Shown in pieces: positions 3 to 29,154 of a DNA stretch of 29,194 bases. Positions within the stretch are counted from its first letter, which is position 1; every line of letters begins with the position of its first letter. The notes beneath the pieces were generated by a model. It saw only the letters and a program-made list of their open reading frames with translations, ran no database searches and was not told the DNA's origin. Made by a program: the position numbers and the translations under genes. Source of the DNA: an uncultured Anaerolineales bacterium (GTDB lineage: Bacteria > Chloroflexota > Anaerolineae > CAZSIG01); assembly GCA_964606195.1 (NCBI GenBank), contig CAZSIG010000001.1, positions 1 to 29,194 on the forward strand, read 5' to 3'.

Positions 3-2864
3 GGTTTGAGCGTGCCGCGCAGTGGTATCGCCCATTCCCTTGACGAAGCGATGCAGGTCGTGCGCGAGACCGGCTTTCCGGCGATTATCCGCCCCGCGTT
101 CACGTTGGGCGGTTCAGGCGGCGGCATCGCGTACAACGTGCAGGAATTTCAAGAGATAGTGCGCAATGGCTTGGATGCCAGCCCGATTTCTCAAGTCTTG
201 ATTGAGGAATCGGTCATCGGGTGGAAAGAGTTTGAGTTAGAGGTGATGCGCGATTTAGCCGATAACTTCGTGGTCATCTGCTCCATTGAGAACTTCGACC
301 CGATGGGCGTCCACACCGGCGATAGCATCACCGTCGCTCCCGCGCAGACCCTCACCGACCGCGAATATCAGCGGCTGCGCGACATGGCGGCGCGCGTCAT
401 TCGGCGTATCGGCGTAGAGACTGGCGGCTCGAACATCCAGTTCGCGGTCAACCCGCAAGATGGGCGGGTGATGGTCATCGAGATGAACCCGCGCGTCTCG
501 CGCTCTTCAGCGCTGGCGAGCAAGGCAACCGGCTTCCCCATCGCCAAAATCGCGGCTAAACTCGCGGTAGGCTATACACTCGATGAGATTCCCAACGACA
601 TCACGCGTGAAACCCCCGCGTCGTTCGAGCCAACATTAGATTACGTGGTGGTCAAGATACCGCGCTGGGCGTTCGAGAAGTTCCCCAGCGCGAGTTCCAC
701 GTTGGGTACGCAGATGAAATCGGTCGGCGAGGCGATGGCTATCGGGCGCACCTTCCAAGAGGCACTGCAAAAGGGGTTGCGCTCGTTAGAGATTGATCGC
801 TACGGATTGGGCGCGGACGGCCACGATAAAATAGCTCCCGAACGACTGCGCGAGCGGCTGATTACCCCGCACCCCGACCGCATCTTCTATATCCGCTACG
901 CGTTTCAGACCGGCATGTCGTTGGAACAGCTTGCCGCGTTGACGCACATTGACCCCTGGTTTCTGGCGCAAATCGAGGATTTGGTCAACTTAGAGGGCAA
1001 GCTGCGCGCTTTTACCCTCGATACCATCCCGCGTGACTTAATGTGGCAAGCTAAACGCGCCGGTTTTTCCGATGTGCAGTTGGCGCATTTGTGCGCCGCG
1101 GGCGCGGGACGCGATATTGTAGGCGCACCCTTGACGGGTGCGAATAGCGCTGAGCTGCGTGTAAGACAAAAACGTGAGGAGTTCGGCATCGCGGCGGTGT
1201 ACAACCGCGTCGATACCTGCGCGGCGGAGTTCGCGGCGCATACGCCCTATCTCTATTCGACCTACGAAACTATCTGTGAGGCACAGCCAACGGCGCGATG
1301 CAAGGCAATGATTTTAGGCGGCGGTCCCAACCGCATCGGGCAGGGCATTGAGTTCGATTATTGCTGCTGTCACGCCGCGTTCGCCCTGCGCGATATGGGC
1401 ATCGAGACAATTATGGTCAACTGCAATCCGGAGACCGTCTCCACCGATTATGACACCTCTGACCGGCTCTACTTTGAGCCGCTGACATTGGAAGATGTGC
1501 TGAACATCGTGGATGTGGAAAAACCCGACGGCGTGCTGGTACAGTTTGGCGGGCAGACGCCGCTTAAACTAGCCCGCGCCCTCGAAGCCGCGGGGGTGCC
1601 ATTGTGGGGTACATCTCCTGACAGTATCGACTTGGCGGAAGACCGTGGGCGTTTCGGCGCGCTGTTGGCGGAATTGGGCATACCCACGCCGGAAAACGGC
1701 GCGGCGTTCTCGCTGGATGAGGCGCGGGCGGTAGCGGCGCGCATCGGCTATCCGGTGCTGGTGCGCCCCTCTTACGTCTTGGGCGGGCGCGCCATGACCA
1801 TCGTATATACCGATGATGAACTAGAACACTACATCCGCGAGGCAGTGGAGGTTACGCCAGACGCGCCGGTGCTCATCGACCGCTTTCTCGAAGACGCGTT
1901 CGAGATGGATGTGGACGCGATTGCCGATGGTGAAGATGTAGTCATCGGTGGCATCATGGAGCAGATTGAGCTGGCGGGCGTCCATTCGGGCGATTCCGCG
2001 TGTGTGCTGCCCACCTATATGGTCGCGCCGCAGCACATTGAAACTATGCGCCGCTATACTGTGCAACTGGCGCGCGCCTTGAAGGTGCGCGGGTTGATGA
2101 ATATTCAGTATGCGATGAAAGATGACGTGGTTTACGCGTTGGAGGTCAACCCGCGCGCCTCGCGCACGATCCCATTCGTCAGCAAGGCGGCCGGCGTGCC
2201 GTTGGCTAAAATCGCGGCGCAGGTGATGGCGGGCAAGACGCTGCGCGAATTAGGCTTGACGCGGGAGCCGGAGATACGCGGCTTTTGGGTCAAAGAGGTA
2301 GCGCTGCCCTTCACGAAGTTCCCCGGCGTCGATACGCTGTTGGGTCCCGAGATGAAAAGCACCGGTGAGAGCATGGGCGTGGCGGGCGACTTCGGCTGGG
2401 CTTACGCGAAGGCACAGATGGGCGTCGGGCATGAGCTTCCCACCGAAGGCGCGGTATTTCTGTCTGTAAACGATAACGATAAGCCGAAAGTGGTGGAAAT
2501 CGCGCGGCAGTTGGCGGAGATGGGCTTTGAACTGTTGGGCACATCGGGCACGGCGGCTTATTGCACCGCGCAGGGCTTGCCGACGCGGACGATATTCAAG
2601 GTGAACGAGGGGCGCCCGAACGCGGTGGACTTCATTGTCAACGGCGAAATCGCGCTGATTATCAATACGCCATTGGGCAAATCATCGTTCTCCGATGAGC
2701 GCGCTCTGCGCCGCGCCGCGGTGATGTATGGTGTGCCGTACACGACGACGCTCTCCGCGGCTGCCGCGGCGGTCGAGGCGATGCGCGCGATACGCGATAA
2801 TAGACTAAATGTGTGTAGTTTGCAGGAGTGGCAAGGTGAGCAGTGGTGTGATAGGGAAAAGTAA
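3..2864 (+). CDS. carB: Carbamoyl-phosphate synthase large subunit (5' end lies outside the window)
   Basis: Two ATP-grasp halves ([33 protein letters not shown]; [10 protein letters not shown]), oligomerisation-domain motif [12 protein letters not shown] and a C-terminal MGS domain (KVNEGRPN). The frame is open to the window edge. Confidence 0.98.
1119..1142 (+). repeat. GTAG-tagged REP-like hairpin embedded in frame in carB
   Basis: gtag-g-cgcaccc-ttgac-gggtgcg: GTAG tag plus a 7-bp perfect stem. It lies within an extra ~16-aa segment (…[12 protein letters not shown]…) of CarB. Confidence 0.6.
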
Positions 2865-3016
2865 TACAATAATTTAACCACTAAGAGCACCAAGAACACT
2901 AAGATTTTTCAGCCAATGGTAATCATACGCGATCAAAAGGTATCATTCAGGACATAAATTAGCTTAGTGCTCTTGGTGTCCTTTGTGGTTAAGTTGTAAT
3001 TATTTTAACCATTACT
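2841..3016. mobile_element. Degenerate MITE-like insertion at the carB stop codon
   Basis: Flanked by a 10-bp near-direct repeat gcaaggtgag (2831-2840) / gtaaggtgag (3017-3026). Both ends read CAGTRRTG inward. The interior holds an inverted-repeat pair. Confidence 0.5.
2872..2994. repeat. Long imperfect inverted-repeat pair (REP-like doublet)
   Basis: atttaaccactaagagcaccaagaacactaag pairs with cttagtgctcttggtgtcctttgtggttaagt across a ~60-bp loop. Confidence 0.8.
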
Positions 3017-3054
3017 GTAAGGTGAGTAGCTCGACAGCGGCGCGGTTTTGGGGC

Positions 3055-3083
3055 TTGGGGGTTGCGCGAGGGTGTGGTATAAT
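3055..3083 (+). promoter_or_regulatory. Putative sigma70 promoter with extended -10
   Basis: TG-g-TATAAT at 3075-3083 and ttgggg 17 bp upstream. Lies 70 bp before the UPF0175 gene, which has RBS aggaggtg. Confidence 0.5.
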
Positions 3084-3152
3084 TGGGCATTGATGATGTA
3101 ATTATTTTTTCCAATGCTGGGTTAGTCTTCCTATTGGAACAGGAGGTGAAAG

Positions 3153-3437
3153 ATGGATACATTAACGGTAGCTATGACCTTACCGCGTGACCTTTTGGGC
3201 GCGCTAGATGTTCCACAAATCAGGCTAGAAGCTAAACTGCGCGAATTAATCGCGCTGGAACTGTTTCGTGAAGAGCGCATCTCTTCTGGCAAAGGCGCGG
3301 AGTTATTGGGTATTTCCAAATGGGAGTTTATCCGCTTGTTGAACAAACATGGCATCTCTTATTTCACAGAATCTCCTGAAGAATTGGAAGCAGAAGTGGC
3401 TATGCTAGAGGCAGTATTAAGGGAACACAGTAAATGA
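3153..3437 (+). CDS. UPF0175 family protein (putative antitoxin)
   Basis: 94 aa with ALELFREERISSGKGAELLGISKWEF…L…GI motif. Strong RBS. ATGA overlap with the downstream PIN gene. Confidence 0.85.
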   Translation: MDTLTVAMTLPRDLLGALDVPQIRLEAKLRELIALELFREERISSGKGAELLGISKWEFIRLLNKHGISYFTESPEELEAEVAMLEAVLREHSK

Positions 3438-3919
3438 TAGTAGTGGCTAATTCGGGTCCCCTAATTTCTTTAGCGCGGGTTGGGCAATTGAACTTGCTGG
3501 AGACGTTATACAATCAATTATATATTCCTCTTGCAGTGCGCGAGGAAGTAGTACACAAGGGGTATGGACTTCCCGGCGCGTCGATGGTTGACGCGGCCTC
3601 CTGGATACAAATTAGGGCAATTCATGATACTGTAGCAGTTCAATTGTTGAGGAAAGAATTGGATGCTGGGGAAAGTGAGGCGATTATACTGGCTGTTGAG
3701 TTGCAAGCTGATTTATTGCTGATTGATGAAGCACGTGGGCGACGTGTGGCAGAGATGCGCGGGTTGTGTAAAACGGGAACACTAGGAACACTAATCGCGG
3801 CGAAGAAACGTTACATCATCTCTGAAGTAACACCATTGCTGGATGACCTCCGAAATGCAGGGGTTCACATGAATAGGGAACTGTATCAGAAAGTCCGCAC
3901 TTTAACAGGGGAAAACTGA
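3434..3919 (+). CDS. DUF3368 family PIN-domain protein (putative toxin)
   Basis: VVANSGPLI start, LDAGESEAI, LLLIDEARGRRVA and GTLGTL motifs typical of COG2405/DUF3368. Confidence 0.88.
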   Translation: MIVVANSGPLISLARVGQLNLLETLYNQLYIPLAVREEVVHKGYGLPGASMVDAASWIQIRAIHDTVAVQLLRKELDAGESEAIILAVELQADLLLIDEARGRRVAEMRGLCKTGTLGTLIAAKKRYIISEVTPLLDDLRNAGVHMNRELYQKVRTLTGEN

Positions 3920-3965
3920 GGCGTTGAAGAAGTACCTCTTTAATAATATTAGAGAGACGCGTCGC

Positions 3966-3990
3966 GTAGGGATGTAGCGAGCTACGCCCT
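3966..3990 (+). repeat. GTAG-tagged REP-like hairpin
   Basis: gtagggatgtagc-ga-gctacgccct: GTAG tag and an imperfect stem. Confidence 0.6.
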
Positions 3991-4016
3991 TTCATGTTTA
4001 CAATCCTGTGTATATT

Positions 4017-4045
4017 TGGACATAACCGCGTAGATGCGGTACAAT
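4017..4045 (+). promoter_or_regulatory. Putative sigma70 promoter for purA
   Basis: TGGACA-N17-TACAAT, 33 bp upstream of the purA ATG. RBS aaggag at 4065-4070. Confidence 0.55.
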
Positions 4046-4078
4046 ATTGCAAATTAACCGATAGAAGGAGATTGGCAA

Positions 4079-5347
4079 ATGACAGTAACCGTGGTAGTAG
4101 GAGCGCAGTGGGGCGATGAAGGCAAGGGGCGCATCATAGATTATTTGGCACAAGACGCGAACATGGTAATCCGGTTTCAGGGAGGGGATAACGCCGGACA
4201 TACCGTCATCAACGAACATGGTAAATTCGCGCTGCATATTATCCCTTCCGGTATTTTTAATCCTAAGACCACCTGTCTGGTCGGCGCGGGAACGGTGGTC
4301 AATTTCGACATAATGGCGGAAGAACTCGCTAAGTTAGAAGCCGCGGGTATAAGTACGAGCAATCTAGTAGTCGATAAACGCGCCCACCTGATTTTGCCCT
4401 TCCATCGCCAACTTGACGGCGCGGAGGAGGCTTCGCGTCGGGAAGGATGGACGGTGGGTACAACTAAACGCGGCATTGGACCTACTTACGCTGATAAAAC
4501 GGCGCGCAACGGGATACGTGTCGGTGACATACTACGCCCTGACCGCTTGCGCCCCCGTCTGGAAATGCTCGTGCCGCGCAAAAACCGCGACCTGACCTTC
4601 TTTGGCTTATCGGAGGTCAACGTTGATGAGTTGATGGAACTCTGCATGGACTGGCGCGATGAATTTGAACAGCGTATCGTAGATTCAGTGCCCATAGTGC
4701 GCGGCGCGGTGCGTAGCGGAAAGAATATCTTGCTGGAAGGGCAGTTGGGGGCTATGCGCGGGCTGGATTGGGGTATCTATCCCTTCGTCACATCTTCGTC
4801 ACCGACGGCGGGCGGCGCGTGTATCGGCGCGGGGGTGCCTCCGCGCGCCATTGATGAGGTATTAGGTGTCGTTAAAGCGTATTCGACCTCAGTGGGCTTC
4901 GGTCCGCTGCCGACTGAATTACATAGTGACATCGGCGAAAAGCTGCGCGAAGTAGGCGGAGAGTTCGGCGCGACCACCGGGCGCCCGCGCCGCTGCGGTT
5001 GGTTCGACGGTATCGCGGTCAGTTACGCGAGTTGGCTCAATGGCTTCACCGGCATCGCGGTGACTAAACTCGATGTGCTGGACACCTTTGAGACGATTCA
5101 ACTCTGTGTCGGCTATCGGCGCGGCAATGAGATGTTCGACTACGTGCCGGACACCGCGACTCAGGAAGAGGTTGAGCCGATTTACGAGGTTTGGGAGGGG
5201 TGGATGACCGATACCAGCGGTGCCCGCGCATGGGATGATTTGCCAATAGCTGCGCAAAACTACCTGCGGCGGATTGAGGAGTTGGCGAACGCGCCGATTA
5301 AGTTTGTCTCGGTGGGACCGGAGCGCGACCAAATCATTGTTTTGTAG
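4079..5347 (+). CDS. purA: Adenylosuccinate synthetase
   Basis: [33 protein letters not shown] and [16 protein letters not shown] motifs. Confidence 0.98.
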
Positions 5348-5404
5348 TTCTCCCGATTGATTTAACAAACGACTGTTTTTTGAAGGTATTTGAAAGTAAA
5401 ACTA

Positions 5405-5683
5405 ATGGAGTTAGAACTGGAATTCGTTGCTAACGCGTTCAAACATGGCGTTACCGAAGAGGAGATTTGGGAAGTATTTCTCAATGATATGGTTAGATGC
5501 GTTATTGTGAAATACAAAAAGAGTGGAACAGATGTTATCTATAATGCTTATGGTATCACTTATGCGGGCAGATATTTGGAAATTGGATATGTAAGGAAAA
5601 CTGCTTCTCAATACCGCGTAATACATGCTATGGATATGCGCGATGCGACCAGAAAAAGATTTAGAAAAATGAGGAAGCTATGA
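5405..5683 (+). CDS. Putative type II toxin, BrnT/DUF4258-like
   Basis: ~92 aa, AT-rich. GRYLEIGY…YRVIHAMDM resembles BrnT/RelE-fold toxins. Overlaps the downstream gene (ATGA). Start could be TTG 5390 or ATG 5405. Confidence 0.6.
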   Translation: MELELEFVANAFKHGVTEEEIWEVFLNDMVRCVIVKYKKSGTDVIYNAYGITYAGRYLEIGYVRKTASQYRVIHAMDMRDATRKRFRKMRKL

Positions 5684-5970
5684 TGGTGAAACTAGAGAAG
5701 ATACCAGATTTTAAGGATGAGCAAGAGATAATTGCCTTTATGGAACAGCATGATGGTTTTGAATTGGTAGACCGCGGATTGGCGGAGATAGTGAAAACTC
5801 CTGTCTTTTATCGGAAAAACCAGATTGAACTTGACGATGATACATTAGAACTTTTAGATGAATTAATTGCAGCAGGAGTTTGCGAGAATAAACAAGAAGC
5901 GGTTAATAACGCGGTACACAGTTATGTATTAGCAGTGTTGCCGCAGTCTTATAAACTAATGCGGGGATAA
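5680..5970 (+). CDS. Putative antitoxin (CopG/BrnA-like N-terminus, ribbon-helix-helix-like C-terminus)
   Basis: IPDFKDEQEIIAFMEQHD resembles CopG-type antitoxin N-termini. Coupled to the upstream toxin-like gene. Confidence 0.6.
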   Translation: MMVKLEKIPDFKDEQEIIAFMEQHDGFELVDRGLAEIVKTPVFYRKNQIELDDDTLELLDELIAAGVCENKQEAVNNAVHSYVLAVLPQSYKLMRG

Positions 5971-6023
5971 TAGAGCACGATTCACTACGGTTTATTTGAG
6001 AACCTATCTCTACAAAAGTACCT

Positions 6024-7436: not shown

Positions 7437-7527
7437 CTTTTTGTCCTTTATGGGGTTATTAACAAAGAAAGTAGTTATGAGTAACCGGACAAGGTTTCGT
7501 TTGAAAAAAGTACCGCGAAATTGTTGC

Positions 7528-7648
7528 ATATGTCACCCTGAGCGCAGCGAAGGGGCTCGTTGTTGTAATAAAACCGCGTCTGGGGGACAGAAAATACTCC
7601 TCGATAGTGCAAACGGGATGCTTCGCTGCGCTCAGCATGACATGATTA
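7528..7648 (+). repeat. 121-bp palindromic element, left direct repeat of the GIY-YIG gene
   Basis: Arms tgtcaccctgagcgcagcgaagg… and …cttcgctgcgctcagcatgaca. 115/121 identical to 7998-8118. Confidence 0.95.
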
Positions 7649-7692
7649 CTGTATACATTAATACCTCGATATAGATATAGGAGTTCGATGTT

Positions 7693-7980
7693 TTGAATAA
7701 TTACTATGTCTATATCATGACCAATCACTCAGGAACTCTTTATATTGGTGTTACTAATGATTTACAGCGTCGCGTTTGGCAGCATAAGCAAAAGCTCATT
7801 AAGGGTTTCACTAAACGCTACAATATTACGCGGTTGGTCTATTACGAGGAAACTTCTGATATAAAGGCTGCAATCACTCGCGAAAAACAACTAAAGGGTT
7901 GGATACGTAGAAAGAAAATTGTTTTGATAGAATCATGTAATCCTGACTGGAAAGATTTGAGTGACAATTGGTATAAGTGA
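7693..7980 (+). CDS. GIY-YIG nuclease family protein (UPF0213/YhbQ-like)
   Basis: YYVYIM…LYIGVTNDLQRRVWQHK, LVYYEE, AITREKQLKGW and NPDWKDL. TTG start 10 nt after AGGAG. Confidence 0.93.
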   Translation: MNNYYVYIMTNHSGTLYIGVTNDLQRRVWQHKQKLIKGFTKRYNITRLVYYEETSDIKAAITREKQLKGWIRRKKIVLIESCNPDWKDLSDNWYK

Positions 7981-7997
7981 GAGCTTAATTTCGCGAG

Positions 7998-8118
7998 ATA
8001 TGTCACCCTGAGCGTAGCGAAGGGTCTCGTTGTTGTAATAAAACCGCGTCTGGGGGTCAGAAAATACTTCTCAATAGTGCAAACGAGATGCTTCGCTGCG
8101 CTCAGCATGACATGATTA
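7998..8118 (+). repeat. 121-bp palindromic element, right direct repeat of the GIY-YIG gene
   Basis: Direct copy of 7528-7648 at a 470-bp period, with 6 substitutions. The loop is shared too. Confidence 0.95.
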
Positions 8119-8179
8119 GAAATAGCTTGATATTGTCAAAGCAGTCGTTTCACAGAGTTTTCATTGGAGTCGAAGAAAT

Positions 8180-9436: not shown

Positions 9437-9439
9437 GGT

Positions 9440-9504
9440 GTGAGGCGCGAAACGTAAGACGTGAGACATGAAACGTAATGCGTGAAGCCTTGCGCATTAC
9501 GTTT
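9440..9504. repeat. Degenerate 7-bp tandem repeat array ending in a 12-bp hairpin
   Basis: Units gtgaggc/gcgaaac/gtaagac/gtgagac/atgaaac/gtaatgc/gtgaagc. Perfect stem aaacgtaatgcg (9471-9482) / cgcattacgttt (9493-9504). Confidence 0.75.
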
Positions 9505-9547
9505 TGTGTATATGGGAATTTGATGTCAATAGTGAGGAGGTAAGCTC

Positions 9548-10207: not shown

Positions 10208-10250
10208 AATACGACTGAGGATCGCTGACTCATAACGACATTAAAAAGGA

Positions 10251-11714: not shown

Positions 11715-11746
11715 AGATCTGATTAGAAGGTATCAGGAGATATTAA

Positions 11747-13078: not shown

Positions 13079-13080
13079 CG

Positions 13081-13308
13081 ATGATTTGTGATATTTGTGG
13101 TCGAGAAGGTGCCCGTGTTAGGTATGTAACGCGCAGTTACGGTAAAGGCGAAGATTTGCTTGTGGTTGAGAATGTTCCAGTTATCAGTTGTCCGCATTGT
13201 GGAGAAAGTTATCTGACTGCCGAGACTTTACATGAAATTGAACGCATTAAGCTGCATCGAAATAGTTTTGCTCAGGAACGTCCTGTGCCTGTGGCAGTTT
13301 TTGCTTAG
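13081..13308 (+). CDS. YgiT-type zinc finger protein (MqsA-like N-terminal domain)
   Basis: CDIC…ENVPVISCPHCGESY. ATG at 13081, 5 nt after GGAG. The ORF-track start at 13024 overlaps hisD and is unlikely. Confidence 0.85.
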   Translation: MICDICGREGARVRYVTRSYGKGEDLLVVENVPVISCPHCGESYLTAETLHEIERIKLHRNSFAQERPVPVAVFA

Positions 13309-13339
13309 TTTTTAGCAGCGCATACGCGAATTTCGCAAG

Positions 13340-13528
13340 ATGATAGAAACAAAACTACCCGAAAACTCTCCGAAAAGATTTCGCGCCGATTGTCCTTGTC
13401 CCAAGAAGAAATGCCCGCGACATGGATATTGCGATGAATGTGAGGAATATCACGCCGCGAAGGGGAATCTTCCCTATTGCGTTAGGGAGAAAACGATATG
13501 GGACAAATTGATGAGGCTTTTTAGCTAG
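13340..13528 (+). CDS. Small Cys/His-rich protein (possible metal-binding; DUF6485-like)
   Basis: CPCPKKKCPRHGYCDECEEYH…LPYC pattern, 62 aa. Confidence 0.65.
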   Translation: MIETKLPENSPKRFRADCPCPKKKCPRHGYCDECEEYHAAKGNLPYCVREKTIWDKLMRLFS

Positions 13529-13749
13529 GGCTTTCTCAAAGTACAAACCGCGTGGTCAAAACCGCTAGTAAGCTCTAGCCCAAGATGTCATGCTGAGCCC
13601 CCGTGCGGGGATAAACTACGCGAAGCATCTCGTTTTCGCTATAATTATTACCTGATGATTAGAACCACCAAAATTAATGGGAGAACGAGACCCTTCGCGG
13701 CGCTCAGGGTGACATATTATTCCAACCACGCGACTTTGAGAAAGCCTTA
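13526..13749. mobile_element. MITE (224 bp) with 17-bp TIRs and a perfect 9-bp target duplication
   Basis: TIRs tagggctttctcaaagt / actttgagaaagcctta (16/17). TSD ctttttagc at 13517-13525 and 13750-13758. Confidence 0.9.
13585..13717 (-). repeat. Solo copy (reverse orientation) of the GIY-YIG-flanking palindrome family
   Basis: atgtcatgctgagc…gcgaagcatctcgttt and aacgagacccttcgcggcgctcagggtgacatat match the reverse complement of the 7998-8118 arms. The loop differs. Confidence 0.9.
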
Positions 13750-13797
13750 CTTTTTAGCTGAAGCGTTGAACTATTGCGAGCTTGAGGGATAACAGGA

Positions 13798-14322: not shown

Positions 14323-14412
14323 TCTTACCGCGGGGTCTCGCAACGGCGCGTGATCTACGTCATAGAAGCTATATTGTAGAACGTATTATCACGAAGAACA
14401 AGGAGGAGAATT

Positions 14413-16185: not shown

Positions 16186-16190
16186 ATTCA

Positions 16191-16285
16191 GGGGCTGCTA
16201 CCAAAAGCCCGCTAAAGCGTGCTGCATCAAAAATCCGCTCCATTCGTTTAATCCGCTGACTTTTTCACCTTTTTTCAGTAGCCCC
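16191..16285. mobile_element. Short degenerate MITE-like element
   Basis: Ends ggggctgctaccaaaag / ctttttcagtagcccc are imperfect inverted repeats. The interior has aatccgc…aatccgc repeats. No TSD found. Confidence 0.4.
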
Positions 16286-16328
16286 ACTCTATAAATTCAT
16301 TCACTAACCATAAGGAGGTTGTAGGAAG

Positions 16329-18179: not shown

Positions 18180-18183
18180 CGGA

Positions 18184-18257
18184 CGGCGTTATAGGGATAA
18201 CGCCCTAACTAGGACTTTCTCATTGTCGCGGGGCGGCGTTATAGGGATAACGCCCTA
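18184..18257. repeat. Two identical 24-bp REP-like palindromes
   Basis: cggcgttatagggataacgcccta at 18184-18207 and 18234-18257 (stem ggcgttat/ataacgcc). Confidence 0.85.
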
Positions 18258-18280
18258 GCACCGCGTACTATAGACGCAGT

Positions 18281-18350
18281 CCCTATTGTCGCGTACCACA
18301 GAGCGCAATCCCTATTGTCGCGTATCACAGGGCGCAATCCCAATTGCGCC
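18281..18350 (+). repeat. 29-bp tandem repeat (2 full copies plus partial copies)
   Basis: ccctattgtcgcgtaccacagagcgcaat / ccctattgtcgcgtatcacagggcgcaat / cccaattgcgcc. Confidence 0.8.
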
Positions 18351-18373
18351 AATCATAAGGAGAACATCACCCG

Positions 18374-20110
18374 ATGAAAATCGAATCCCTGATTTCCGCC
18401 CACGTTCACGAACTACACCCCTACGAACCACCCGACCGCGTCGCGCTGGCTAAACGCGCCGGTATTTCCCCCACCCGCCTGATGCGCCTCGACGCCAACG
18501 AGAATCCCTACGGCATCTCCCCCCGCGCCGCCGCCGCGCTGGCGCGGTTTGACGGCTACAGCGTTTACCCCAACCGCCGAGCGATAACCACCGCGGTGGC
18601 GCACTACGCCGGCGTCGCGGAGAACCAAGTAGTGCTGGGCAACGGCGGCGACGAGGTAATCGACATGATCACGCGCACCTTCATCGAGCCGAGCGACGCG
18701 ATTATCATCTGCCCGCCATCGTTCGGTATGTACGCCATCAGCGCGGCGGCGCATCGCGGTGAAGTGTTGAGTGTCCCGCGCCGCGCAGATTGGTCTTTGG
18801 ATGTAGAGGGGATAGAAAAGTTGGTGAATAACGCCGCGGCGGAGACGCGCCCGAAGTTGCTCTACGTCATCTCGCCGGGCAACCCGGAGGGTTTGGCGAT
18901 TCCGCACGATACGATCAAGCGGTTGTTGCAGTTGCCCCTCGCGGTTGTCGTGGACGAGGCATACATCGAATTCGGCGGTGAGACGATTGTTCCGCTGATA
19001 GGCGCGCATTCTAATCTGATTGTGCTGCGCACTTTCAGCAAGTGGGCGGGCATGGCGGGGCTGCGCTTAGGCTACGCGGTCACTTCTGCGGAGATCGCCG
19101 CGTTCATGGAACGAGTGCGCATTTCGCACAACGTCAACGCGGCAGCGATCGCGGCGGGCTTGGCAGTTTTAGAGGATATAGATTACGCGCGTTCGATCAT
19201 CAAGAACATCGTCACCGAGCGCGAGAGGTTGTACAACGCGCTTGACGCCATGTCGGGGGTACACCCGATTCCTAGTCAGGCTAATTTCGTACTCTCTTAT
19301 CTCGATAACCATGTTGGTCAAGAGATAAAAGACGCGTTGGTGCGGCGCGGTATTCTGATTCGTACTTACTCCGATGCGAAATTGGCGAACGCCATTCGCA
19401 TCACGGTTGGGCGTCCTGCACAAAACGACGCGGTAATCACTGCGCTGGCGGATATTCTGAAGGTTTCCGTCCCGCCGATGATTCGAGATGCCCGTCACCT
19501 TGAAGGTAATGAGCATTTGGCAGTACCGCGCCACGCGCAAATCGAGCGGAGCACACGCGAGACCGAGATCGCGGTCGATTTGCATCTCGATGGTACGGGA
19601 CAGTATGAAATCAGCACTGGCTTGGGATTTTTGGACCACATGCTGGCACAAATCGCGGCGCATGGGTTGTTCGACTTGACCGTGCAGGCGCGCGGCGATT
19701 TGGAGATAGATGAACATCACACCGTTGAGGATGTGGCGATTGTGTTGGGGCAAGCGATAGACGCGGCGTTGGGCGATCGGCACGGCATCGTGCGCATGGA
19801 GCACGCCTACGCGCCGCTCGATGAAACTCTGGCGCACATCGTCGTGGATTTGAGCGGACGCCCCTACGCGGTCGTAGATGCGGAGTTCACCACGCCACGC
19901 GTCGGCGCGGTCGGCACCGATCTCATCGCCCATTTTTTGGAAACCCTAGCGTTCCACGCGCGCCTGAGTCTGCACGCTCGCGTACTTTACGGACGCAATG
20001 ACCATCACAAGGCAGAGGCTTTGTTCAAGGCGTTAGGACGCGCCCTAGATGCCGCGACGCGGTTAGATGCGCGGCGCGTTGGCGTACCTTCAACTAAGGG
20101 GATTTTGTGA
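18374..20110 (+). CDS. hisC-hisB: Fused histidinol-phosphate aminotransferase / imidazoleglycerol-phosphate dehydratase
   Basis: N-terminal HisC ([30 protein letters not shown]), ~25-aa linker, C-terminal IGPD ([30 protein letters not shown]). No stop between the domains. Confidence 0.95.
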
Positions 20111-20113
20111 GAG

Positions 20114-20183
20114 GTAAAACGTAATGCGTGAAACGAAAAAGGCGCGAATGGTAAACTAAATAGGGCGCAGTATATACTGTGCC
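20114..20183. repeat. Three 7-bp units plus a REP-like palindrome
   Basis: gtaaaac/gtaatgc/gtgaaac (16 nt identical to 9471-9486), then tagggcgcagtatatactgtgcc with a perfect 12-bp palindromic core. Confidence 0.55.
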
Positions 20184-20195
20184 GGGAGGTAACAG

Positions 20196-21203: not shown

Positions 21204-21251
21204 GCGAATGGAATAGGGCGTAGTTACGCGGTTCAATTAGAGAGGGATAAC

Positions 21252-22781: not shown

Positions 22782-22819
22782 GCGAAGCATACCTATTACT
22801 TTTTTTGACAGGAGAATCA

Positions 22820-23446
22820 ATGATAACGATAATTGATTATGGTATGGGCAACCTGCGGAGCGTGCAGAAGGCTCTGGAGCGCGTCGGCGCGCAGGCGATT
22901 ATAACCGCTGACCCCGCCGCGTTGGATACGGCGCGGGGAGTTATATTGCCGGGTGTCGGCGCGTTCGGCGATGCGATGGTGAATTTGAGGAAATATGAAT
23001 TTGTCGAGCCGCTATTGCGGCAGGCGAAGATGGGTAAACCGCTGCTGGGTATCTGCCTGGGAATGCAGTTACTGTTCGAGGAGAGTGAGGAAATGGGGCA
23101 GCATCGCGGCTTGGGCTTGCTGCCCGGACGCGTCGTGCGTTTCCTCGAGGGGGAGTTGAAAGTGCCACACGTCGGCTGGAACCAGTTGCAAATGCGCGCC
23201 GCGTCACCGGAGCGCGATGTATTGTTGGCAGATATTGATGATGGAGCCTATGTATATTTTGTACATTCTTACTACGTCGCGCCCGAAAACCCGCGTGATG
23301 TGCTGGCGGCAACGGAGTACGGTCTCGAATTCGCAGCGATAGTGGGGCGCGGCAATTTGTTTGGCGCACAGTTTCACCCGGAGAAAAGCCAAGAGGTGGG
23401 ATTGCGGATATTACAAAACTTCGCGAAAATCTGCGGAGAGAGTTAG
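22820..23446 (+). CDS. hisH: Imidazole glycerol phosphate synthase, glutamine amidotransferase subunit
   Basis: IIDYGMGNL, LPGVGAF, GICLGMQ, YFVHSYY and QFHPEKS. ATG at 22820 after aggag. Confidence 0.97.
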   Translation: MITIIDYGMGNLRSVQKALERVGAQAIITADPAALDTARGVILPGVGAFGDAMVNLRKYEFVEPLLRQAKMGKPLLGICLGMQLLFEESEEMGQHRGLGLLPGRVVRFLEGELKVPHVGWNQLQMRAASPERDVLLADIDDGAYVYFVHSYYVAPENPRDVLAATEYGLEFAAIVGRGNLFGAQFHPEKSQEVGLRILQNFAKICGES

Positions 23447-23465
23447 AGCTATTTGTTGGAGAAAA

Positions 23466-24080
23466 ATGGAACGAACTATCGAACGTAAATCATCTAGTAC
23501 GGCAGGTTACACCTGTTTTTCGCGTGCCTGTGCCAACAGAGAACCGGACGCGCGGTTTCGCGGTCCCGATGACATGGCGCAGGTTTTCTTGTCCTGGGGC
23601 GCGAAGGTGGTGCTTAACGTTCCTCTATTCAGAAAGTTTTTCATGCGTCGTATCGCGCCGCCCGGTATATACGAATACGTGCTGGCGCGCACGAAGTTGT
23701 TAGATGAGGTATTCAGGATCAACGCAGATTCGTGGGGTAAACGGTAGCAGCCGCGAAGTGCAAAATACCCGCGTAGGGCGGCTTTCTTAGTCGCCGCTCC
23801 AAATCATCGGAAAAAACGGCAGGTATGGAAACTTGCCCTACCCCACGAATCCGCGTAGAGCCGGTATTCATAGACGCGCTGGAAAATCACTTCGCGCAGA
23901 TTGTGCTGTTGGACGCGGGTTTTGACACCAGAGCTTTACGGTTTCGGTATAAGAACGAGGGAACTAAGATTTTTGAGTTGGATATTTACACTACACAGTA
24001 ACCCAAGATCGATATTCTTCAGCGTGAGGGGGTTGCTCTGCTCGTGTAACTCATTTTTGTGCCGATTGATTTCAACCACG
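23466..24080 (+). pseudogene. Class I SAM-dependent methyltransferase (TIGR00027/LCM-like) pseudogene
   Basis: …YVLARTKLLDEVF|IDALENHFAQIVLLDAGFDTRALRF…KIFELD…FVPIDFN. Broken by a MITE, two in-frame TAA codons (23999, 24047), an apparent G>D change in the GAG motif and 3' truncation. Confidence 0.85.
23716..23862. mobile_element. MITE (147 bp) with 24-bp TIRs and an 8-bp target duplication
   Basis: TIRs ggatcaacgcagattcgtggggta / taccccacgaatccgcgtagagcc (21/24). TSD ggtattca at 23708-23715 and 23863-23870. Removing the element restores the reading frame. Confidence 0.9.
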
Positions 24081-24183
24081 CCGCGGTGCTCCGATGCGAA
24101 AATAGGTTCTACGGTGAAAAAGAGATCTACGAAACAGTATCGAAAACTGGAGAGGGTTGGACTTTTGGTATAGGGGAGGGGGA

Positions 24184-24330
24184 AATGTAGTAGAAGAGGT
24201 CGGAACGCGCCTCGTCGGGGGTGTGATACACCCGATGATAAACCCATTCGCTCTTCAACGCGCCGAAGAAGCTCTCCATCGGCGCGTTGTCGTATCAGCT
24301 CCCCGCTCCATTCATACTGACCTGGCTGTG
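24184..24330 (-). pseudogene. IS3-family transposase fragment (integrase core C-terminus)
   Basis: Minus-strand translation HSQVSMNGAGS*YDNAPMESFFGALKSEWVYHRVYHTPDEARSDLFYYI. The stop sits at the conserved Cys position. Confidence 0.8.
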
Positions 24331-24360
24331 CCCGTTCTTGTTTTCATCAAAACCGCCTGC

Positions 24361-25173
24361 TCACCGCTGCGCCACCCATCGGCGCATCAGTTCCACCGTG
24401 AACTGCCAATGTCCGTCCGTCTCGCGTATCACGTCGTGCCGCGCCAATGTATCTAGGGCGCGGCGCGTTTCCTCCGACGTAAGCTGTGCCCCCCGCGCGA
24501 TTTCCTTCTCCGTCATCCCCGCGTCCGCCTGTGCCAGGACGCGCAGCACCTCCGTTTGCGTGGGCAGCGCACTCTTCTCCGTCTGCCCCCAGATGCCGGT
24601 GAAGTAGGCGTCGCCGTCGCGGTAGAACTCCGCCGCGCCGACCACCGCCGTCACGTCCGCGAGCGCGAACCGCCGCTCTCTCTCAATACCTTCCTCGAAT
24701 GTCTGCCGGTTGAACCGCGTCACCAGGTGGTGGCAGACGAGCTGCACCAGGTACGGCTGCTCATTGGTGAGGGCCAAAATCCTCGTGATGGCGTCCGCGT
24801 CGTAGTCGATGGCGAAGTCGGGCGAGGGCTGCGTGATGAGCCGCCGCGCCGCGCCCTCACTCAAAAAGCTGACCGAAATGGCGGTGACGCTGGCGAACAG
24901 CGGGTGCCAGTAATCGCGCCGCATCTCTTCCAGCGTGTGCAAGCCCGCGAATGCCATGATGAACCAGGAATAGGTCTGAATCAGGCTGCGCCAGAAATCG
25001 AGCAGGCGCGCATCCAACTCGCCCGCGGCAATCCCCTGCTCTATCATTTCAAACTCGTCGACCGCGACGATGAACTGCCGCCGCCCTCGCACGCGGTCGA
25101 GCCGCTTGAGGTAGCGGTCGAGGGCGGTGTAGGGGTTGTGCGCGGTGAATTGTTCTTCGGCTGGTTCTGCCAA
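24361..25173 (-). pseudogene. C-terminal fragment of an AAA+/STAND-like ATPase
   Basis: Walker B IVAVDEFE, FAGLHTL, LTNEQPYLVQLVC and a C-terminal winged-helix-like segment are present. No Walker A. In-frame stop at 25221-25219. Confidence 0.7.
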
Positions 25174-25212
25174 GACTTCCGAAGTCTTGAAGACTTCGGA
25201 AGTCTGGCAGAA
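25165..25212. repeat. Double (nested) palindrome
   Basis: agacttc-c-gaagtct tga agacttc-g-gaagtct: each half is self-complementary and the two halves are inverted. A relative lies at 29102-29135. Confidence 0.85.
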
Positions 25213-25294
25213 ATTCGTTCAGTGGCGCGGTGCGCAACTATGCCAAATCTTATCGCACGCTTCATCCGGTCACCGTTCAACCAATAACCGAAAG

Positions 25295-25386
25295 TGAGGA
25301 GCGCAGCGCCGAAGAATCTCGCGCTACACCGGATTATTACTTCCTGAACCGAGATTCTTCGCTCCCGGTGGTCGCTCAGAATGACA
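25295..25386. repeat. Divergent solo member of the GIY-YIG-flanking palindrome family
   Basis: tgaggagcgcagcgccgaagaatctc…gagattcttcgctcccggtggtcgctcagaatgaca. Same gcgcagcg/gaag…tctc and gctcag…tgaca skeleton. The left tgtca end is lost. Confidence 0.7.
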
Positions 25387-25454
25387 TCCTATCGCGAAGT
25401 CTCGTTGTAGTGTTAGTATCCTCCTCTATTCTCGCATCACTAATCCCCAAGCCG

Positions 25455-25498
25455 TAATGTAATAATGTAATAATGTAGCCGCAGGCTTTACATCTGCG
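25455..25498 (+). repeat. 8-bp tandem repeat x3 running into a short GTAG hairpin
   Basis: taatgtaa taatgtaa taatgtag, then ccgcaggctttacatctgcg. Confidence 0.45.
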
Positions 25499-25542
25499 CT
25501 GACCGCGCAAGTTATTTAATTCGCGATCCTTAACAAAAACAG

Positions 25543-27036
25543 CTATCTTCCCAAAAACCACATCGCGGTGAGGGGAGTGATGTTAGCTTCGATGAACGCG
25601 GCAATCAGGAATATGGGGACACAAACTAACAAGAATACCTTTACAAAATTTGCGACAGCGAGCAGTAACCCCTCGCCGACGGTCATGCCCTCCGGCGGTG
25701 CCATGAGCGCGGCGCCTATCTGGACGGCAAACGCGTAGGCGATGATCGCCGCGGGTAATTCTAATATGCCGTGCGGAAGGATGAAAGTAGTAAGTAACAG
25801 CACCGGATTATAACCGAGAAAGTGCGCCTCCAGAGCGATGAAACCAATGATGCCCATCGGAAAGGCGATGGCTAAGAGGGGCAGGGTGCCAAAGGTGAAC
25901 ACCGCGATAAATGCAGAGAGGATGATGGCGCGTACGTTGTGGAAGAAGATCGCGAGGGTACTAAATCCGGGCAAAATGCCGCGCAGGGCTTCTCTCATTT
26001 CTGATAGTTCGCCTGTGGCATCGCCGCGCCCGATGTTGAGTTCAGATAAATCCGCGTCGAGGATCTCCGGTGGGAGCGGAAATTGCGAGGCAACGATCGC
26101 GCCGCCGATGAGCGCCGCAGTGATAACAATGAACACGGTGATTAGGGGCAAGCGATAGAGTTGTATCAGGCGCGGAATGTCGTGCCGGTAGAAACGTTTG
26201 AAATCGGGCGCGGGCAGCTTATCGGGTAGCACTCCGTAACCCTGAGTTTTGTTCTCGTCCGGCGGATTCAACAGGAAAAATAGAAACTTGCGCCAGATCA
26301 ATCCCAAATCTAAGCGGTCGAACTCACGCGCCAAAATCTCCTCGCGATTGAAGATGCGAATGCCCATGCGCACCACGACGATGTCTATGACGAATATAAT
26401 CGCGACGATCGACCACATCTCCACATATTTGCCCCAGAAAAGTAGAATGCTCTCGGCTTGCAGGAGCAACGCCATCGGTACGACGATGAAACTGGCAAGC
26501 AGGTTCGCGGCGCGCACGCTGGTGGTGTGACTGGAAACCACGACCGCGCCCGCGACCATGACCAAGCCCTCCATCGTGGTGATAATCAGCGTTTGAATAA
26601 TAACGATAGCGGGGGGGATATAGTCCAGAGTGAAGTAGATCAAGCCCAGATAAACCGCGATGCCGAGATAGCTGGCGAAGAGTGGCGGCGTCATCGCCGC
26701 GATTAGTTTACCCAAATAAAGCTCCGCGTCGGTGACCGGCATCGCTAACAACGGTTCGAGACTGTTGCGTTCCTTTTCGCCCACAAAGGTCTCCAGCGCG
26801 ATGACGAGCGAGAAGGTGATCGGGAAAAAGCCGACCAGCAGCATGGCAAAGGGTATCAAGCGTAACGGTATAATTTGTGCTCCGTACTCCTCGATAAAAT
26901 CGAGCGCGGCGTCGGTAGTCATCTGCATTAGCCAGGGAAACGCGGTAGTGAGGATGAGGATCGGCGCGATGATACGCCAGTCGCGCGTGCTGTCTATCAA
27001 TTCTCGTTTGGTGATGATAAATACATTTCTTAACAT
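25543..27036 (-). CDS. ABC-2 type permease fused to a SpoIIM/DUF95-like membrane domain
   Basis: N-half: FVGEKERNSLEPLLAMP…LYLGKL. C-half: IFFHNVRA…LPHGILELPAAIIA…AAFIEANITP. Confidence 0.85.
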   Translation of the reverse strand: MLRNVFIITKRELIDSTRDWRIIAPILILTTAFPWLMQMTTDAALDFIEEYGAQIIPLRLIPFAMLLVGFFPITFSLVIALETFVGEKERNSLEPLLAMPVTDAELYLGKLIAAMTPPLFASYLGIAVYLGLIYFTLDYIPPAIVIIQTLIITTMEGLVMVAGAVVVSSHTTSVRAANLLASFIVVPMALLLQAESILLFWGKYVEMWSIVAIIFVIDIVVVRMGIRIFNREEILAREFDRLDLGLIWRKFLFFLLNPPDENKTQGYGVLPDKLPAPDFKRFYRHDIPRLIQLYRLPLITVFIVITAALIGGAIVASQFPLPPEILDADLSELNIGRGDATGELSEMREALRGILPGFSTLAIFFHNVRAIILSAFIAVFTFGTLPLLAIAFPMGIIGFIALEAHFLGYNPVLLLTTFILPHGILELPAAIIAYAFAVQIGAALMAPPEGMTVGEGLLLAVANFVKVFLLVCVPIFLIAAFIEANITPLTAMWFLGR

Positions 27037-27073
27037 GGTTCTAAAAAGTGATACGTAAAACTTGACTTTAGGA

Positions 27074-27259
27074 CTAGCTATCTGACACTTTCAAATTACC
27101 CCTGCGGCTCGCGCCGCGGTTCGCCGAGTGAACTCGGCGCGGCTACCGGAAATATGCTGAAGCATGTGCAGCATAACGCGCTTCAGCACGTTTCTCATGG
27201 CAACCGTGAGTTCACTCACGGGGTGCGCGACGCGAGACAGCAAACTGTCAGGTGGCTAG
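27074..27259. mobile_element. MITE-like element (186 bp) containing nested REP hairpins
   Basis: Ends ctagctatctgacacttt / aaactgtcaggtggctag (15/18 inverted). Flanks actttagga / actttacat share only 6/9. Interior hairpins at 27122-27146 (GTAG on - strand), 27155-27188 and 27204-27221. Confidence 0.55.
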
Positions 27260-27306
27260 ACTTTACATAAATTTGTCTAAGAGCTTGTTCTAAACTCCTC
27301 AGTGTC

Positions 27307-27981
27307 TCAGTGGTTGCAAACTCGGTGCACACTCTCAAAAAACGCGGCTAATTTTTCTTCATCCAGTTTATCATTAGTTCGCACGCCGCTGCACACATCC
27401 ACACCATACGGGCGCACTTGCCGAATCGCCGCCGCGACGTTATCTGGACGCAATCCACCCGCGAGGAATATCGGCACTTCGACTTTCTCCCGAATGCGAC
27501 GGCTAATTTCCCAGTTATGTGTCCTGCCGGTGCCGCCTAACTCCTTCACCGCGAGGTTGGGATTGCCCGAATCGAGCAGAATTCCATCCACATGCCGCGC
27601 CACCGTGCGCGCTTCCGCGATCACCTCTTCACCCGTAACGTGAATCACTTGGACGATTGATACCCCCGGCAACGCGGCTTTTAGCTTCGCGTAGCTTTCC
27701 AATTCTAAACGGTCGCAGAGTTGCAACGTGTTCACGCCACAGCACCGCTGCTGCGCGATAATCTCCGCCGCGTCTTGACGGCTGGTGAGCAGAAACGAGC
27801 CAATCGCGGGGGGGACATGTGCGGCAATTTTCGTTATGAGAGATTCCGCGATGACACCAGGACCGCTCGGCATCTCTGAAACCAAGCCTAGTGCGGATGC
27901 GCCATAGCGTATCGCGGTCCACGCCTCCGCGACGCTGCTGATACAACAAATCTTGACCCTTGTGATTCTGGGAGGCTCCAC
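27307..27981 (-). CDS. trpF: Phosphoribosylanthranilate isomerase family protein (stand-alone, KICC variant)
   Basis: RVKICC, LLDS, GGTGRTHNW, LAGGLRPDNV and GVDVCSGV. Confidence 0.75.
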   Translation of the reverse strand: MEPPRITRVKICCISSVAEAWTAIRYGASALGLVSEMPSGPGVIAESLITKIAAHVPPAIGSFLLTSRQDAAEIIAQQRCCGVNTLQLCDRLELESYAKLKAALPGVSIVQVIHVTGEEVIAEARTVARHVDGILLDSGNPNLAVKELGGTGRTHNWEISRRIREKVEVPIFLAGGLRPDNVAAAIRQVRPYGVDVCSGVRTNDKLDEEKLAAFFESVHRVCNH

Positions 27982-27985
27982 GTTT

Positions 27986-28705
27986 CTATTTTTTCCCTAC
28001 TGGCATAATACACAACGGGATCTCCGCATTCTCCATGTTCATGCTTTTCTTGATCTCATCGTCGTAGAAAGCCCCGACGATTACCGTCCCCAAATCTAGT
28101 GCGCCGGCTTGCAAATAGACATTCTGCGCCGCGTGCCCGACCTCTATGTGTACATATTTTATACCCCTATCGTCGTACTTCTGTGTCGTCCGCTCGTAAA
28201 CCGCGCCGAACACGATGACGATGGCGCCTTCTCCGACCCAACTCTGCCCCACCGCCGCGTCGCTCAACTGCTCCCGCACATCGCGATTGCCAATTCTTAT
28301 CAATTCGTGACCATCAGGTCTGTACTTGTAGACGCCCGTTGTAATCCCCTCGACGTTGCCGACCGCGACGTATAGCTCCAGCGGATAGAGCGCGCCCGCC
28401 GACGGCGCGGTTCTGTAGCCACGCTCATTGGTAATTCCCTGCGCCGCCCATAGTAATTGCGAGACTTCGGCGCGCGTCAGCGGCTCTTTTGCGAATTTTC
28501 TCACTGACCTTCTGTTGAGCAGTGCTTCTTCTACTGATATGTCACTATCGCGTCGCGGTTCGGGCAGTGTTACGGTGCTCGTTTCGCTTTCCTCGCTTGA
28601 TAAGGGCGCGTTATTCTCGTTCGCGCGCAATACTGTGAGAAATATCACCATTCCCGCGCATATAATCGCGATGAGAGAAAGTAAGAAGGGTTTCGATTTG
28701 TTCAT
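27986..28705 (-). CDS. SagB/ThcOx-family nitroreductase with an N-terminal membrane anchor
   Basis: RRSVRKF, QLLWAAQG, RTAPSAGALYPLE, EVGHAAQNVYLQA and GAFYDD. Confidence 0.9.
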   Translation of the reverse strand: MNKSKPFLLSLIAIICAGMVIFLTVLRANENNAPLSSEESETSTVTLPEPRRDSDISVEEALLNRRSVRKFAKEPLTRAEVSQLLWAAQGITNERGYRTAPSAGALYPLELYVAVGNVEGITTGVYKYRPDGHELIRIGNRDVREQLSDAAVGQSWVGEGAIVIVFGAVYERTTQKYDDRGIKYVHIEVGHAAQNVYLQAGALDLGTVIVGAFYDDEIKKSMNMENAEIPLCIMPVGKK

Positions 28706-28757
28706 CTTGGCACTTATGCAATTTGCAAATAGCTATTTTTTTGCCACTTATTTCAGC

Positions 28758-28979
28758 TAGGACTTACGCAACTTCGGGGTATTTTTACCGCCGAGCACGC
28801 CCCCGTGCGGGGATAAACTACGAGCGCGGAGTTTTAACTACAATTTGTACCATCTGAAAATATGACCTTAAATGATAGCGTATGATCGCTTATGCTGGTA
28901 GCAAAATTATTTCTATAAGAATGCTCCGCGTCCTCAGCGCTCTCTGCGGTGAGTTGCAGCGCGGTTTGCGTAAGTCCTA
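28758..28979. mobile_element. MITE (222 bp) with TAGGACTTACGCAA TIRs
   Basis: Perfect 14-bp TIRs. Flanks tcagc/tcagt (5-bp TSD with 1 mismatch). Interior has an accgccgag…gcggag / ctccgcg…ctctgcggt inverted pair. Confidence 0.85.
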
Positions 28980-29020
28980 TCAGTTCTTTTAATTGATACA
29001 ACGCGAGCGACAAGAATATG

Positions 29021-29154
29021 TAGGACTTACGCAACTTCACATTAAATCTGCACGACTGAGCTACAAATGACTACTAATGAACGCCAATGAACGCGGGGCG
29101 GAGACTTCCGAAGTTTTCCGAAACTTCGGAAGTCTGAAATTTGCGTAAGTCCTG
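29021..29154. mobile_element. MITE (134 bp) with (T/C)AGGACTTACGCAA TIRs
   Basis: TIRs taggacttacgcaa / ttgcgtaagtcctg. Perfect 5-bp TSD atatg (29016-29020, 29155-29159). Interior has a double palindrome at 29102-29135. Confidence 0.88.

Follow-up and report, generated by a model that had tools for sequence, protein, structure and literature searches.

The non-coding DNA of an uncultured Anaerolineales bacterium raises the question of how small palindromic repeats come to lie inside miniature transposable elements with inverted repeats (MITEs). The window, meaning the whole stretch of DNA analysed, is the complete contig CAZSIG010000001.1 of assembly GCA_964606195.1 (29,194 bp); its gene content is that of ordinary biosynthetic genes and about 14% of it is non-coding. 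The initial annotation described seven MITE-like shells, every one of them carrying a different palindrome, and proposed that palindromes either colonise MITEs preferentially or are spread by them. Four of the seven are real MITEs with terminal inverted repeats (TIRs) and target site duplications (TSDs), and true nesting is found in three shells (13526-13749, 28758-28979 and 29021-29154). The span is not one system but the repeat-rich non-coding DNA of a his/pur biosynthetic gene cluster. We lean towards the hypothesis that transposases of at least three lineages moved the MITEs in trans, that the interiors consist in part of integral hairpins and in part of palindromes acquired later, and that nesting results from neutral accumulation and passive carriage.

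Four MITEs with three unrelated types of ends

Each candidate shell was checked for TIR arms, flanking TSDs and folding z-scores. A generic scan for TIR plus TSD that needed an exact terminal seed was too strict and recovered only 29021-29154; direct checks of arms and flanks were used instead. Elements 28758-28979 (222 bp) and 29021-29154 (134 bp, z = -7.9), both on the plus strand, have in common the TIR (T)AGGACTTACGCAA(CTTC), exact over 13-14 nt, a motif with four exact copies in the window for 0.5 expected. Their 5-bp TSDs are TCAGC/TCAGT and ATATG (29016-29020 / 29155-29159), respectively. The two elements have the same orientation, with 41 bp between them, and unlike interiors. The MITE at 13526-13749 (z = -9.3) has a TIR of 16/17 matching positions (TAGGGCTTTCTCAAAGT), subterminal CGCGTGGT at both sides and a perfect 9-bp TSD CTTTTTAGC (13517-13525 / 13750-13758); its insertion point is the exact stop codon of a small Cys-rich open reading frame (ORF) at 13340-13527, whose protein is left unchanged. 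The fourth MITE, 23716-23862 (147 bp), has a 24-nt TIR (21/24) with the terminus GGATCAACGCAGATTCGTGGGGTA and an 8-bp TSD GGTATTCA (23708-23715 / 23863-23870). Each TSD length (5, 8 or 9 bp) is paired with a TIR unrelated to the other two, which bears out the earlier idea that several transposases are implied.

Element 23716-23862 interrupts an LCM methyltransferase pseudogene (23466-24001). Deletion of the element together with one TSD copy joins two same-frame pieces as a 126-aa ORF with a PF04072 match spanning the junction (E = 1e-13); the interrupted left half of the pseudogene has no Pfam match. The pseudogene is also truncated after about 126 aa and is followed by an IS3-type rve_2 remnant on the minus strand (24127-24279). 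A reading of 23361-24173 as a split hisA was ruled out, the region being the LCM methyltransferase pseudogene. A 1-nt indel at 23615 separates the window strain from the sister strain (see below).

The 5-bp class belongs to the ISPlag1 lineage

A search of the 18-nt TIR of the 5-bp class (family A) against 185,579 species genomes yields 39 loci. The majority are MITEs of about 91 bp in Heteroscytonema crispum and other Nostocales; the remaining loci belong to Ca. Poribacteria, an Anaerolineales metagenome-assembled genome (MAG, locus L047) and other uncultured bacteria. Perfect 5-bp TSDs are present in 21 of the 23 paired elements, with the geometry N-AGGAC...GTCCT-N that the window elements share. 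Autonomous partners are found in Ca. Poribacteria at loci L043 and L025. The former is an insertion sequence (IS) of 1082 bp bounded by family-A TIRs (L043, 371-1452) that codes for a 344-aa IS701-family transposase (NF049921, 390 bits for a cut-off of 250), 55% identical to transposases from Planktothrix plasmids annotated "IS701-like element ISPlag1 family". The ISPlag1 copy on a Planktothrix plasmid has the ends CAGGACTTACGCA.../...TGCGTAAGTCCTG and a 5-bp TSD TTCAA. The TIR of ISPlag1 is published as CAGGACTTACGCAAGCACGC... (PMC2464740). The window pair, ISPlag1 and 21 of the 23 related MITEs all have ends of the form N-AGGACTTACGCA...TGCGTAAGTCCT-N and a TSD of 5 bp. Because these termini and the TSD geometry match, 28758-28979 and 29021-29154 are MITEs of the ISPlag1 family (IS701). 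No ISPlag1-type transposase was found in the host DNA examined (the window and 1.1 kb of the sister strain). The family-A 17-mer has seven matches in IMG/VR, at least three of them in coding sequence of helix-turn-helix type; none of the seven has a paired TIR, and they were treated as unrelated.

The autonomous IS with matching TIRs that the initial annotation called for is thus available for family A, in other genomes (Ca. Poribacteria, Planktothrix), but searches for the 8-bp and 9-bp classes revealed neither an autonomous partner nor any relative. A literature search on the TIR strings of 13526-13749 and 23716-23862 returned nothing relevant, and the TIR pattern of 13526-13749 has no match in IMG/VR. 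This TIR combined with its subterminal pattern gave two matches in the JGI metagenomes, both chance occurrences in high-GC coding DNA.

Two side observations concern this family. A MAG labelled Saccharibacteria (locus L029, 2689-2860) carries an element with an ISPlag1-type left TIR and a diverged right end (...TTGCATAGGTCCTA). It encloses a hairpin like the GIY-type arms described below (CGTCTTTGCGAG...CTCGCAAAGACG), a likeness judged by eye alone, and may be another case of shell plus palindrome in a distant lineage. The window contig stops about 40 nt beyond a MITE, and the contigs of L047 and L053 stop inside one; such ends at or near MITEs are consistent with repeat-induced assembly breaks.

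Palindromes inside and outside the shells

The palindrome of 13526-13749 was assigned by the initial annotation to the family of a GIY-YIG gene, and comparison of the copies confirms it. The putative free-standing source (7528-8118, plus strand) is a GIY-YIG gene (7693-7980, PF01541) placed between hairpins 7528-7648 and 7998-8118, of 121 nt each and 95% identical. The nested hairpin (13585-13715) is inverted relative to both, and its arms match 7528-7561 and 7998-8031 over 34 nt at 94%. A fourth copy, at 25296-25392, is a degenerate free-standing hairpin with an enlarged arm loop. The GIY-YIG gene and its flanking hairpins recur in unrelated contigs (L054-L059) without any MITE shell. GIY-YIG homologues carry the name Anaerolineae, which, together with the MITE subfamily shared with L047, points to an Anaerolineae-type origin of the window; further homologues that were looked up belong to other genomes. 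From hairpins flanking the gene in several unrelated genomes, the GIY-YIG nuclease is a candidate mover of GIY-type hairpins. These may be non-autonomous derivatives of the GIY-YIG-gene cassette, with the arm loop as a general acceptor site.

The GIY-YIG gene of the window codes for 95 aa and belongs to a protein family of over 5,000 clusters. The arms of GIY-type hairpins have the form GTCA-stem-CTGAG[loop]GAAG-stem, with a loop of 6 to about 38 nt and a stem that covaries (CCCT/AGGG, TGCT/AGCA, ATTCT/AGAAT). L054 and L055 (10289-10530) are the same locus from two samples, with one and three tandem copies, respectively, of an 88-nt unit in which the GIY-YIG gene's 3' end is joined to one hairpin arm, a copy-number polymorphism at the GIY-YIG cassette.

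The AGACTTC double palindrome is likewise present in both settings. One copy (29102-29135, AGACTTCCGAAGT...ACTTCGGAAGTCT) is nested in 29021-29154 and one (25173-25205, AGACTTCCGAAGTCT / AGACTTCGGAAGTCT) stands outside any shell; the AGACTTC motif has eight matches in the window for 0.37 expected. These free-standing copies agree with the earlier statement that cargo families also occur outside shells. The GTAG doublet reported in 23716-23862 consists of two inverted GTAGGGC-tagged hairpins (23773-23841), and the only two copies of GTAGGGC in the window are these, both within the element.

The interior of 28758-28979 is of another kind. Its ACCGC hairpin has arms at 28787-28831 and 28924-28950. 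The contig end of L047 reads TAGGACTTACGCAACTTCGGAGTATTTTTACCGCCGAGCAC|GCGGAGAG and matches the left 40 nt of the element plus a hairpin arm, at a different flanking site. Since the L047 copy has the hairpin at another flank, the ACCGC hairpin is part of a MITE subfamily and moves with the shell. In Heteroscytonema, the central palindrome GATAATTCATGAATTATC is within a MITE in 31 of its 31 occurrences (about 240 kb of DNA), so that the interior of family A is fixed within that genome. Across phyla, the same TIR family has a different palindrome interior in each genome.

A 27-nt insert common to two unrelated hairpins

A 24-nt sequence, GCCCCCGTGCGGGGATAAACTACG, is identical at 13597-13620 and 28799-28822, for 0 such matches expected. 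It is part of a mini-insert that combines a hairpin, with a predicted CCCC/GGGG stem, and a tail. In 13526-13749, copy 1 (13597-13620, plus strand) occupies the variable loop in an arm of the GIY-type hairpin, as a third nesting layer; in 28758-28979, copy 2 (28799-28825, plus strand), the 27-nt GCCCCCGTGCGGGGATAAACTACGAGC, lies in the left hairpin arm. Both copies are found directly 3' of a GAGC, in arms of unrelated hairpins. At the corresponding point, L047 has GAGCAC|GCGGAG in its copy of this MITE and the 27 nt are missing, which argues that the mini-insert arrived after the MITE hairpin. GIY-type arms without it are found at 7612-7643 and 8082-8113; this comparison of filled and unfilled sites is between paralogous copies, not orthologous sites. 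A 21-mer of the mini-insert, present twice in the window, has no match in the JGI metagenomes or IMG/VR. We tentatively regard GCCCCCGTGCGGGGATAAACTACGAGC as a possible, though doubtful, example outside cyanobacteria of an ultra-small mobile element of the small dispersed repeat (SDR) type, which would insert in hairpin loops or arms and give a three-layer nesting of MITE, GIY-type hairpin and mini-insert.

Candidates that are not shells

The claim that every shell carries cargo fails for three of the seven candidates, which are non-shells or single hairpins. The one at 2841-3016, described as a weak shell with a doublet, has almost no TIR at these outer ends. It is a single hairpin (2841-3018, z = -6.7) that immediately follows the carB coding sequence; its arms, at 2871-2903 and 2963-2995 (33 nt, 85%), each consist of three units of 9 nt (NNCACNAAG). 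An exact 8-bp direct repeat, AAGGTGAG (2833-2840 / 3019-3026), flanks it; by hand estimate, a flanking repeat of this sort has a chance of about 1%. Without the 178 bp, the stop codon of carB is the TAG at 3027-3029, directly after the AAGGTGAG repeat. The region is probably the insertion of one hairpin element and not a shell with separate cargo. Arms of the 9-nt-periodic design are only three in the window, two in 2871-2995 and one inside 28758-28979; the design is therefore found both free-standing and inside an ISPlag1-type shell. More 9-nt-periodic repeat arms (…CTCCGTGAACTCCGCGACTCTGTGGTTAA) are observed in the sister strain just past the window end at 29194 (L052, 1040-1160).

Region 27074-27259 is a long imperfect palindrome of 186 bp (z = -7.3) with a terminal inverted repeat of 12/14. 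It folds end to end, and its supposed three nested hairpins are one interrupted stem. No clean TSD and no separate cargo were found there; it is possibly a degenerate MITE. Region 16191-16285, between two genes, was rejected as a shell: its TIR extends over only about 8/9 nt, an adjacent TSD is lacking, the fold has z = -2.1, and the two copies of AATCCGCT are in direct and not in palindromic arrangement.

Nesting frequency and comparison with a sister strain

MITEs account for 15% of the non-coding DNA (cargo excluded) when the validated set is used and for 25% when two doubtful shells are added. Of the GIY-type and AGACTTC copies, six in all, two are nested (P = 0.22 for the strict shell set, 0.45 for the loose one). 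This proportion fits the MITE share of non-coding DNA, and hence the window cannot reject the null of nesting by chance; the preference for MITEs as landing pads is not borne out. The initial annotation had named two findings contrary to its proposal, namely nesting at the level expected from intergenic density and shell families that always carry one fixed interior. Both occur in part: nesting in the window is at expectation, and the interior is fixed in the Heteroscytonema family.

Sister assembly GCA_054922115.1 has the same DNA on three short contigs at 98.5-99.9% identity, and a Logan contig from SRR33304596 is identical across 27194-28785. No genes are called inside the elements (134-224 bp) in the sister assembly. 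The filled/empty polymorphism looked for between strains is not found: only single-nucleotide polymorphisms and one 1-nt indel distinguish the two. Two differences touch the repeats themselves. At 25189, the exact centre of the free AGACTTC palindrome, the strains differ by a G/C flip, and five differences in 7555-7616 make hairpin 7528-7648 resemble the copy at 7998-8118, which suggests loop inversion and gene conversion among repeats.

Origin of the nested arrangement

We favour a scenario in which at least four non-autonomous MITEs of three unrelated TIR/TSD classes would have inserted among the his/pur genes, with DDE transposases acting on them in trans, presumably of the ISPlag1 lineage (IS701 family) for the pair at 28758-29154. 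Their interiors would be of two kinds. The first would be hairpin modules integral to a MITE subfamily, such as the ACCGC hairpin of 28758-28979. The second would be later arrivals: the GIY-type hairpin of 13526-13749, the AGACTTC doublet of 29021-29154 and the 27-nt mini-insert. Nesting would follow because MITE interiors are just more neutral non-coding DNA, and a palindrome, once within a MITE, would be carried along passively. For the GIY-type and AGACTTC cargo we infer this order of events, as we do the enzymes moving the palindromes and an activity of the elements in this genome. Late entry of palindromes is illustrated by single cases (the mini-insert missing from L047, the free-standing copies) and so is hitch-hiking; support for either mechanism is anecdotal and neither is shown to be dominant.

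Several observations weigh against this scenario. There is no transposase gene in the window. The sister strain keeps every element in place and thus offers no direct sign that any moved recently. A second copy of the 13526-13749 or 23716-23862 family was found neither in about 31 kb of the genome nor in the collections searched (IMG/VR and the JGI metagenomes by TIR pattern for 13526-13749, PLSDB by blastn for both elements), and consequently the multicopy nature of these families and their partner ISs are putative. The L047 copy is cut by its contig end after 49 nt, so that its left part alone is known, and the sampled DNA of this genome amounts to about 30 kb. Finally, when the mini-insert is counted, four of eight copies are nested (P = 0.02 strict, 0.11 loose), a count made post hoc.

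This last figure leads to an explanation that we find unlikely, in which small palindromes would prefer hairpin or cruciform DNA, and MITEs and other palindromes would be favoured landing pads. It agrees with the position of both mini-inserts in hairpin arms, each just 3' of a GAGC, and with the loop occupied in the GIY-type arm, a position hypervariable across genomes. However, the sites of the mini-insert are arms of hairpins and not MITE DNA in itself, its copies are two with no further one in the metagenomic and viral collections searched, nesting is at expectation without it, and the enrichment was computed on a pattern already seen.

That DDE-mobilised MITEs are instead the main route by which palindromes spread, free copies being remnants of decayed shells, appears quite improbable to us. 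The ACCGC hairpin does travel with its shell in L047, the Heteroscytonema palindrome is always within a MITE, and one TIR family encloses a different palindrome per genome across phyla. Yet no TIRs lie near three of the window's four GIY-type hairpins or near one of its two AGACTTC doublets, and in unrelated genomes such hairpins border GIY-YIG genes with no MITE shell around them. Interior palindromes of family-A shells also lie outside shells in other genomes with the same TIR family: AGAAACCSGGTTTCT doublets do so in L021 and Heteroscytonema, where they are mostly outside, and the CCCCCC...GGGGGG (C6/G6) element does so in Calothrix (L035) and Heteroscytonema (L024). The notion that there is no nesting at all, each element being a MITE or a terminator-like hairpin with chance interior likenesses, fits 2841-3018, 27074-27259 and 16191-16285 (single hairpins or weak) and the interior of 23716-23862, which has no other copy in the window, but is highly improbable overall and already refuted for 13526-13749, 28758-28979 and 29021-29154, as the shared stretches (34-nt arms at 94%, 24 nt exact) are too long for chance, AGACTTC is in large excess and no Rfam family matches any of the hairpin regions.

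Genes and further repeats of the window

The genes of the window are carB, purA, purB, hisS, hisG, hisD, a GNAT acetyltransferase, a hisC/hisB fusion, purM-like, purH, hisH, trpF and a nitroreductase gene. The apparent fusion is one 578-aa ORF (18374-20110) that combines a class I/II aminotransferase (HisC-like) with an imidazoleglycerol-phosphate dehydratase (HisB-like). Small toxin-antitoxin-like genes are scattered among the his/pur housekeeping genes: UPF0175 and DUF3368 (3153-3919), a CopG-like pair (5390-5970) and a YgiT/MqsA-type zinc finger (13081-13308). Scans of the whole window with Rfam (E <= 1) and for tRNAs gave zero matches, and therefore no hairpin corresponds to a known RNA.

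Upstream of the hisC/hisB fusion (region 18181-18332), the palindrome GGCGTTATAGGGATAACGCC occurs twice, 50 nt apart, and is followed by a 29-nt tandem repeat (18275-18332); these may be regulatory or another repeat family. A repeat of the ACGTAATGCGTGAA type forms a strong hairpin after hisS (9440-9509, z = -4.5), and one arm alone recurs behind the hisC/hisB gene (20107-20132). It is a further small dispersed family.

Relation to known repeat systems

TIR-bearing remnants of ISPlag1, MITE-like, are known in Planktothrix agardhii (Christiansen et al. 2008, PMC2464740). The window pair resembles them in its terminal (C/T)AGGACTTACGCA...TGCGTAAGTCCT(G/A), its 5-bp TSD and the existence of short non-coding derivatives bounded by TIRs; it differs in that the elements are of 134 and 222 bp, their interiors are unrelated to ISPlag1 and the host is not a cyanobacterium. 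Paired palindromes recall the repetitive extragenic palindromes (REPs), their doublets (REPINs) and the bacterial interspersed mosaic elements (BIMEs), which are short imperfect palindromes arranged as inverted intergenic doublets (Bertels & Rainey 2011, PMC3116915; Di Nocera et al. 2013, PMC3733652). The AGACTTC(C/G)GAAGTCT doublets and the GTAGGGC pair of 23716-23862 share this inverted layout, but the AGACTTC units lack a GTAG or CGTC tag and only the pair of 23716-23862 starts with GTAGGGC. No gene for a REP-associated tyrosine transposase (RAYT, IS200/IS605-like) is present in the window.

The mini-insert has its closest counterpart in SDR1-8 of Nostoc/Anabaena, which Elhai and colleagues reportedly described in 2008 as hairpin units of 21-27 nt within other repeats or minitransposons, sometimes nested. 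Their mobility is said to have been inferred from reconstructed pre-insertion sequences. The likeness, drawn from the description, lies in the length of 27 nt, the predicted hairpin, the location within other repeats and the filled and unfilled MITE copies; unlike SDRs, the mini-insert has only two copies, its host is non-cyanobacterial and no orthologous empty site is seen. Nested MITEs are known in plants, and insertion of ISs into REP sequences was reportedly noted by Tobes and Pareja in 2006. These systems also place repeats within repeats, as neutral or preferred targets. There, however, the larger element usually enters the smaller palindrome, whereas here small palindromes lie within MITEs. 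SDR5, for its part, is cited in PMC4390886 as inserting precisely into HIP1.

Significance

A new layer of mobility is not established by this locus, neutral accumulation and passive carriage being sufficient for the nesting. Layering of repeats in repeats is already known in kind; what stands out is the 27-nt mini-insert and the architecture of a GIY-YIG gene plus hairpins with variable loops. In this uncultured and little-studied lineage, intergenic DNA carries layers of repeats from at least three MITE classes and several families of small palindromes. The ISPlag1/IS701 TIR family spans cyanobacteria, Ca. Poribacteria and Anaerolineales-type genomes with a hairpin interior that differs in each, a distribution that is of use for repeat annotation and helps to explain assembly breaks at repeats.

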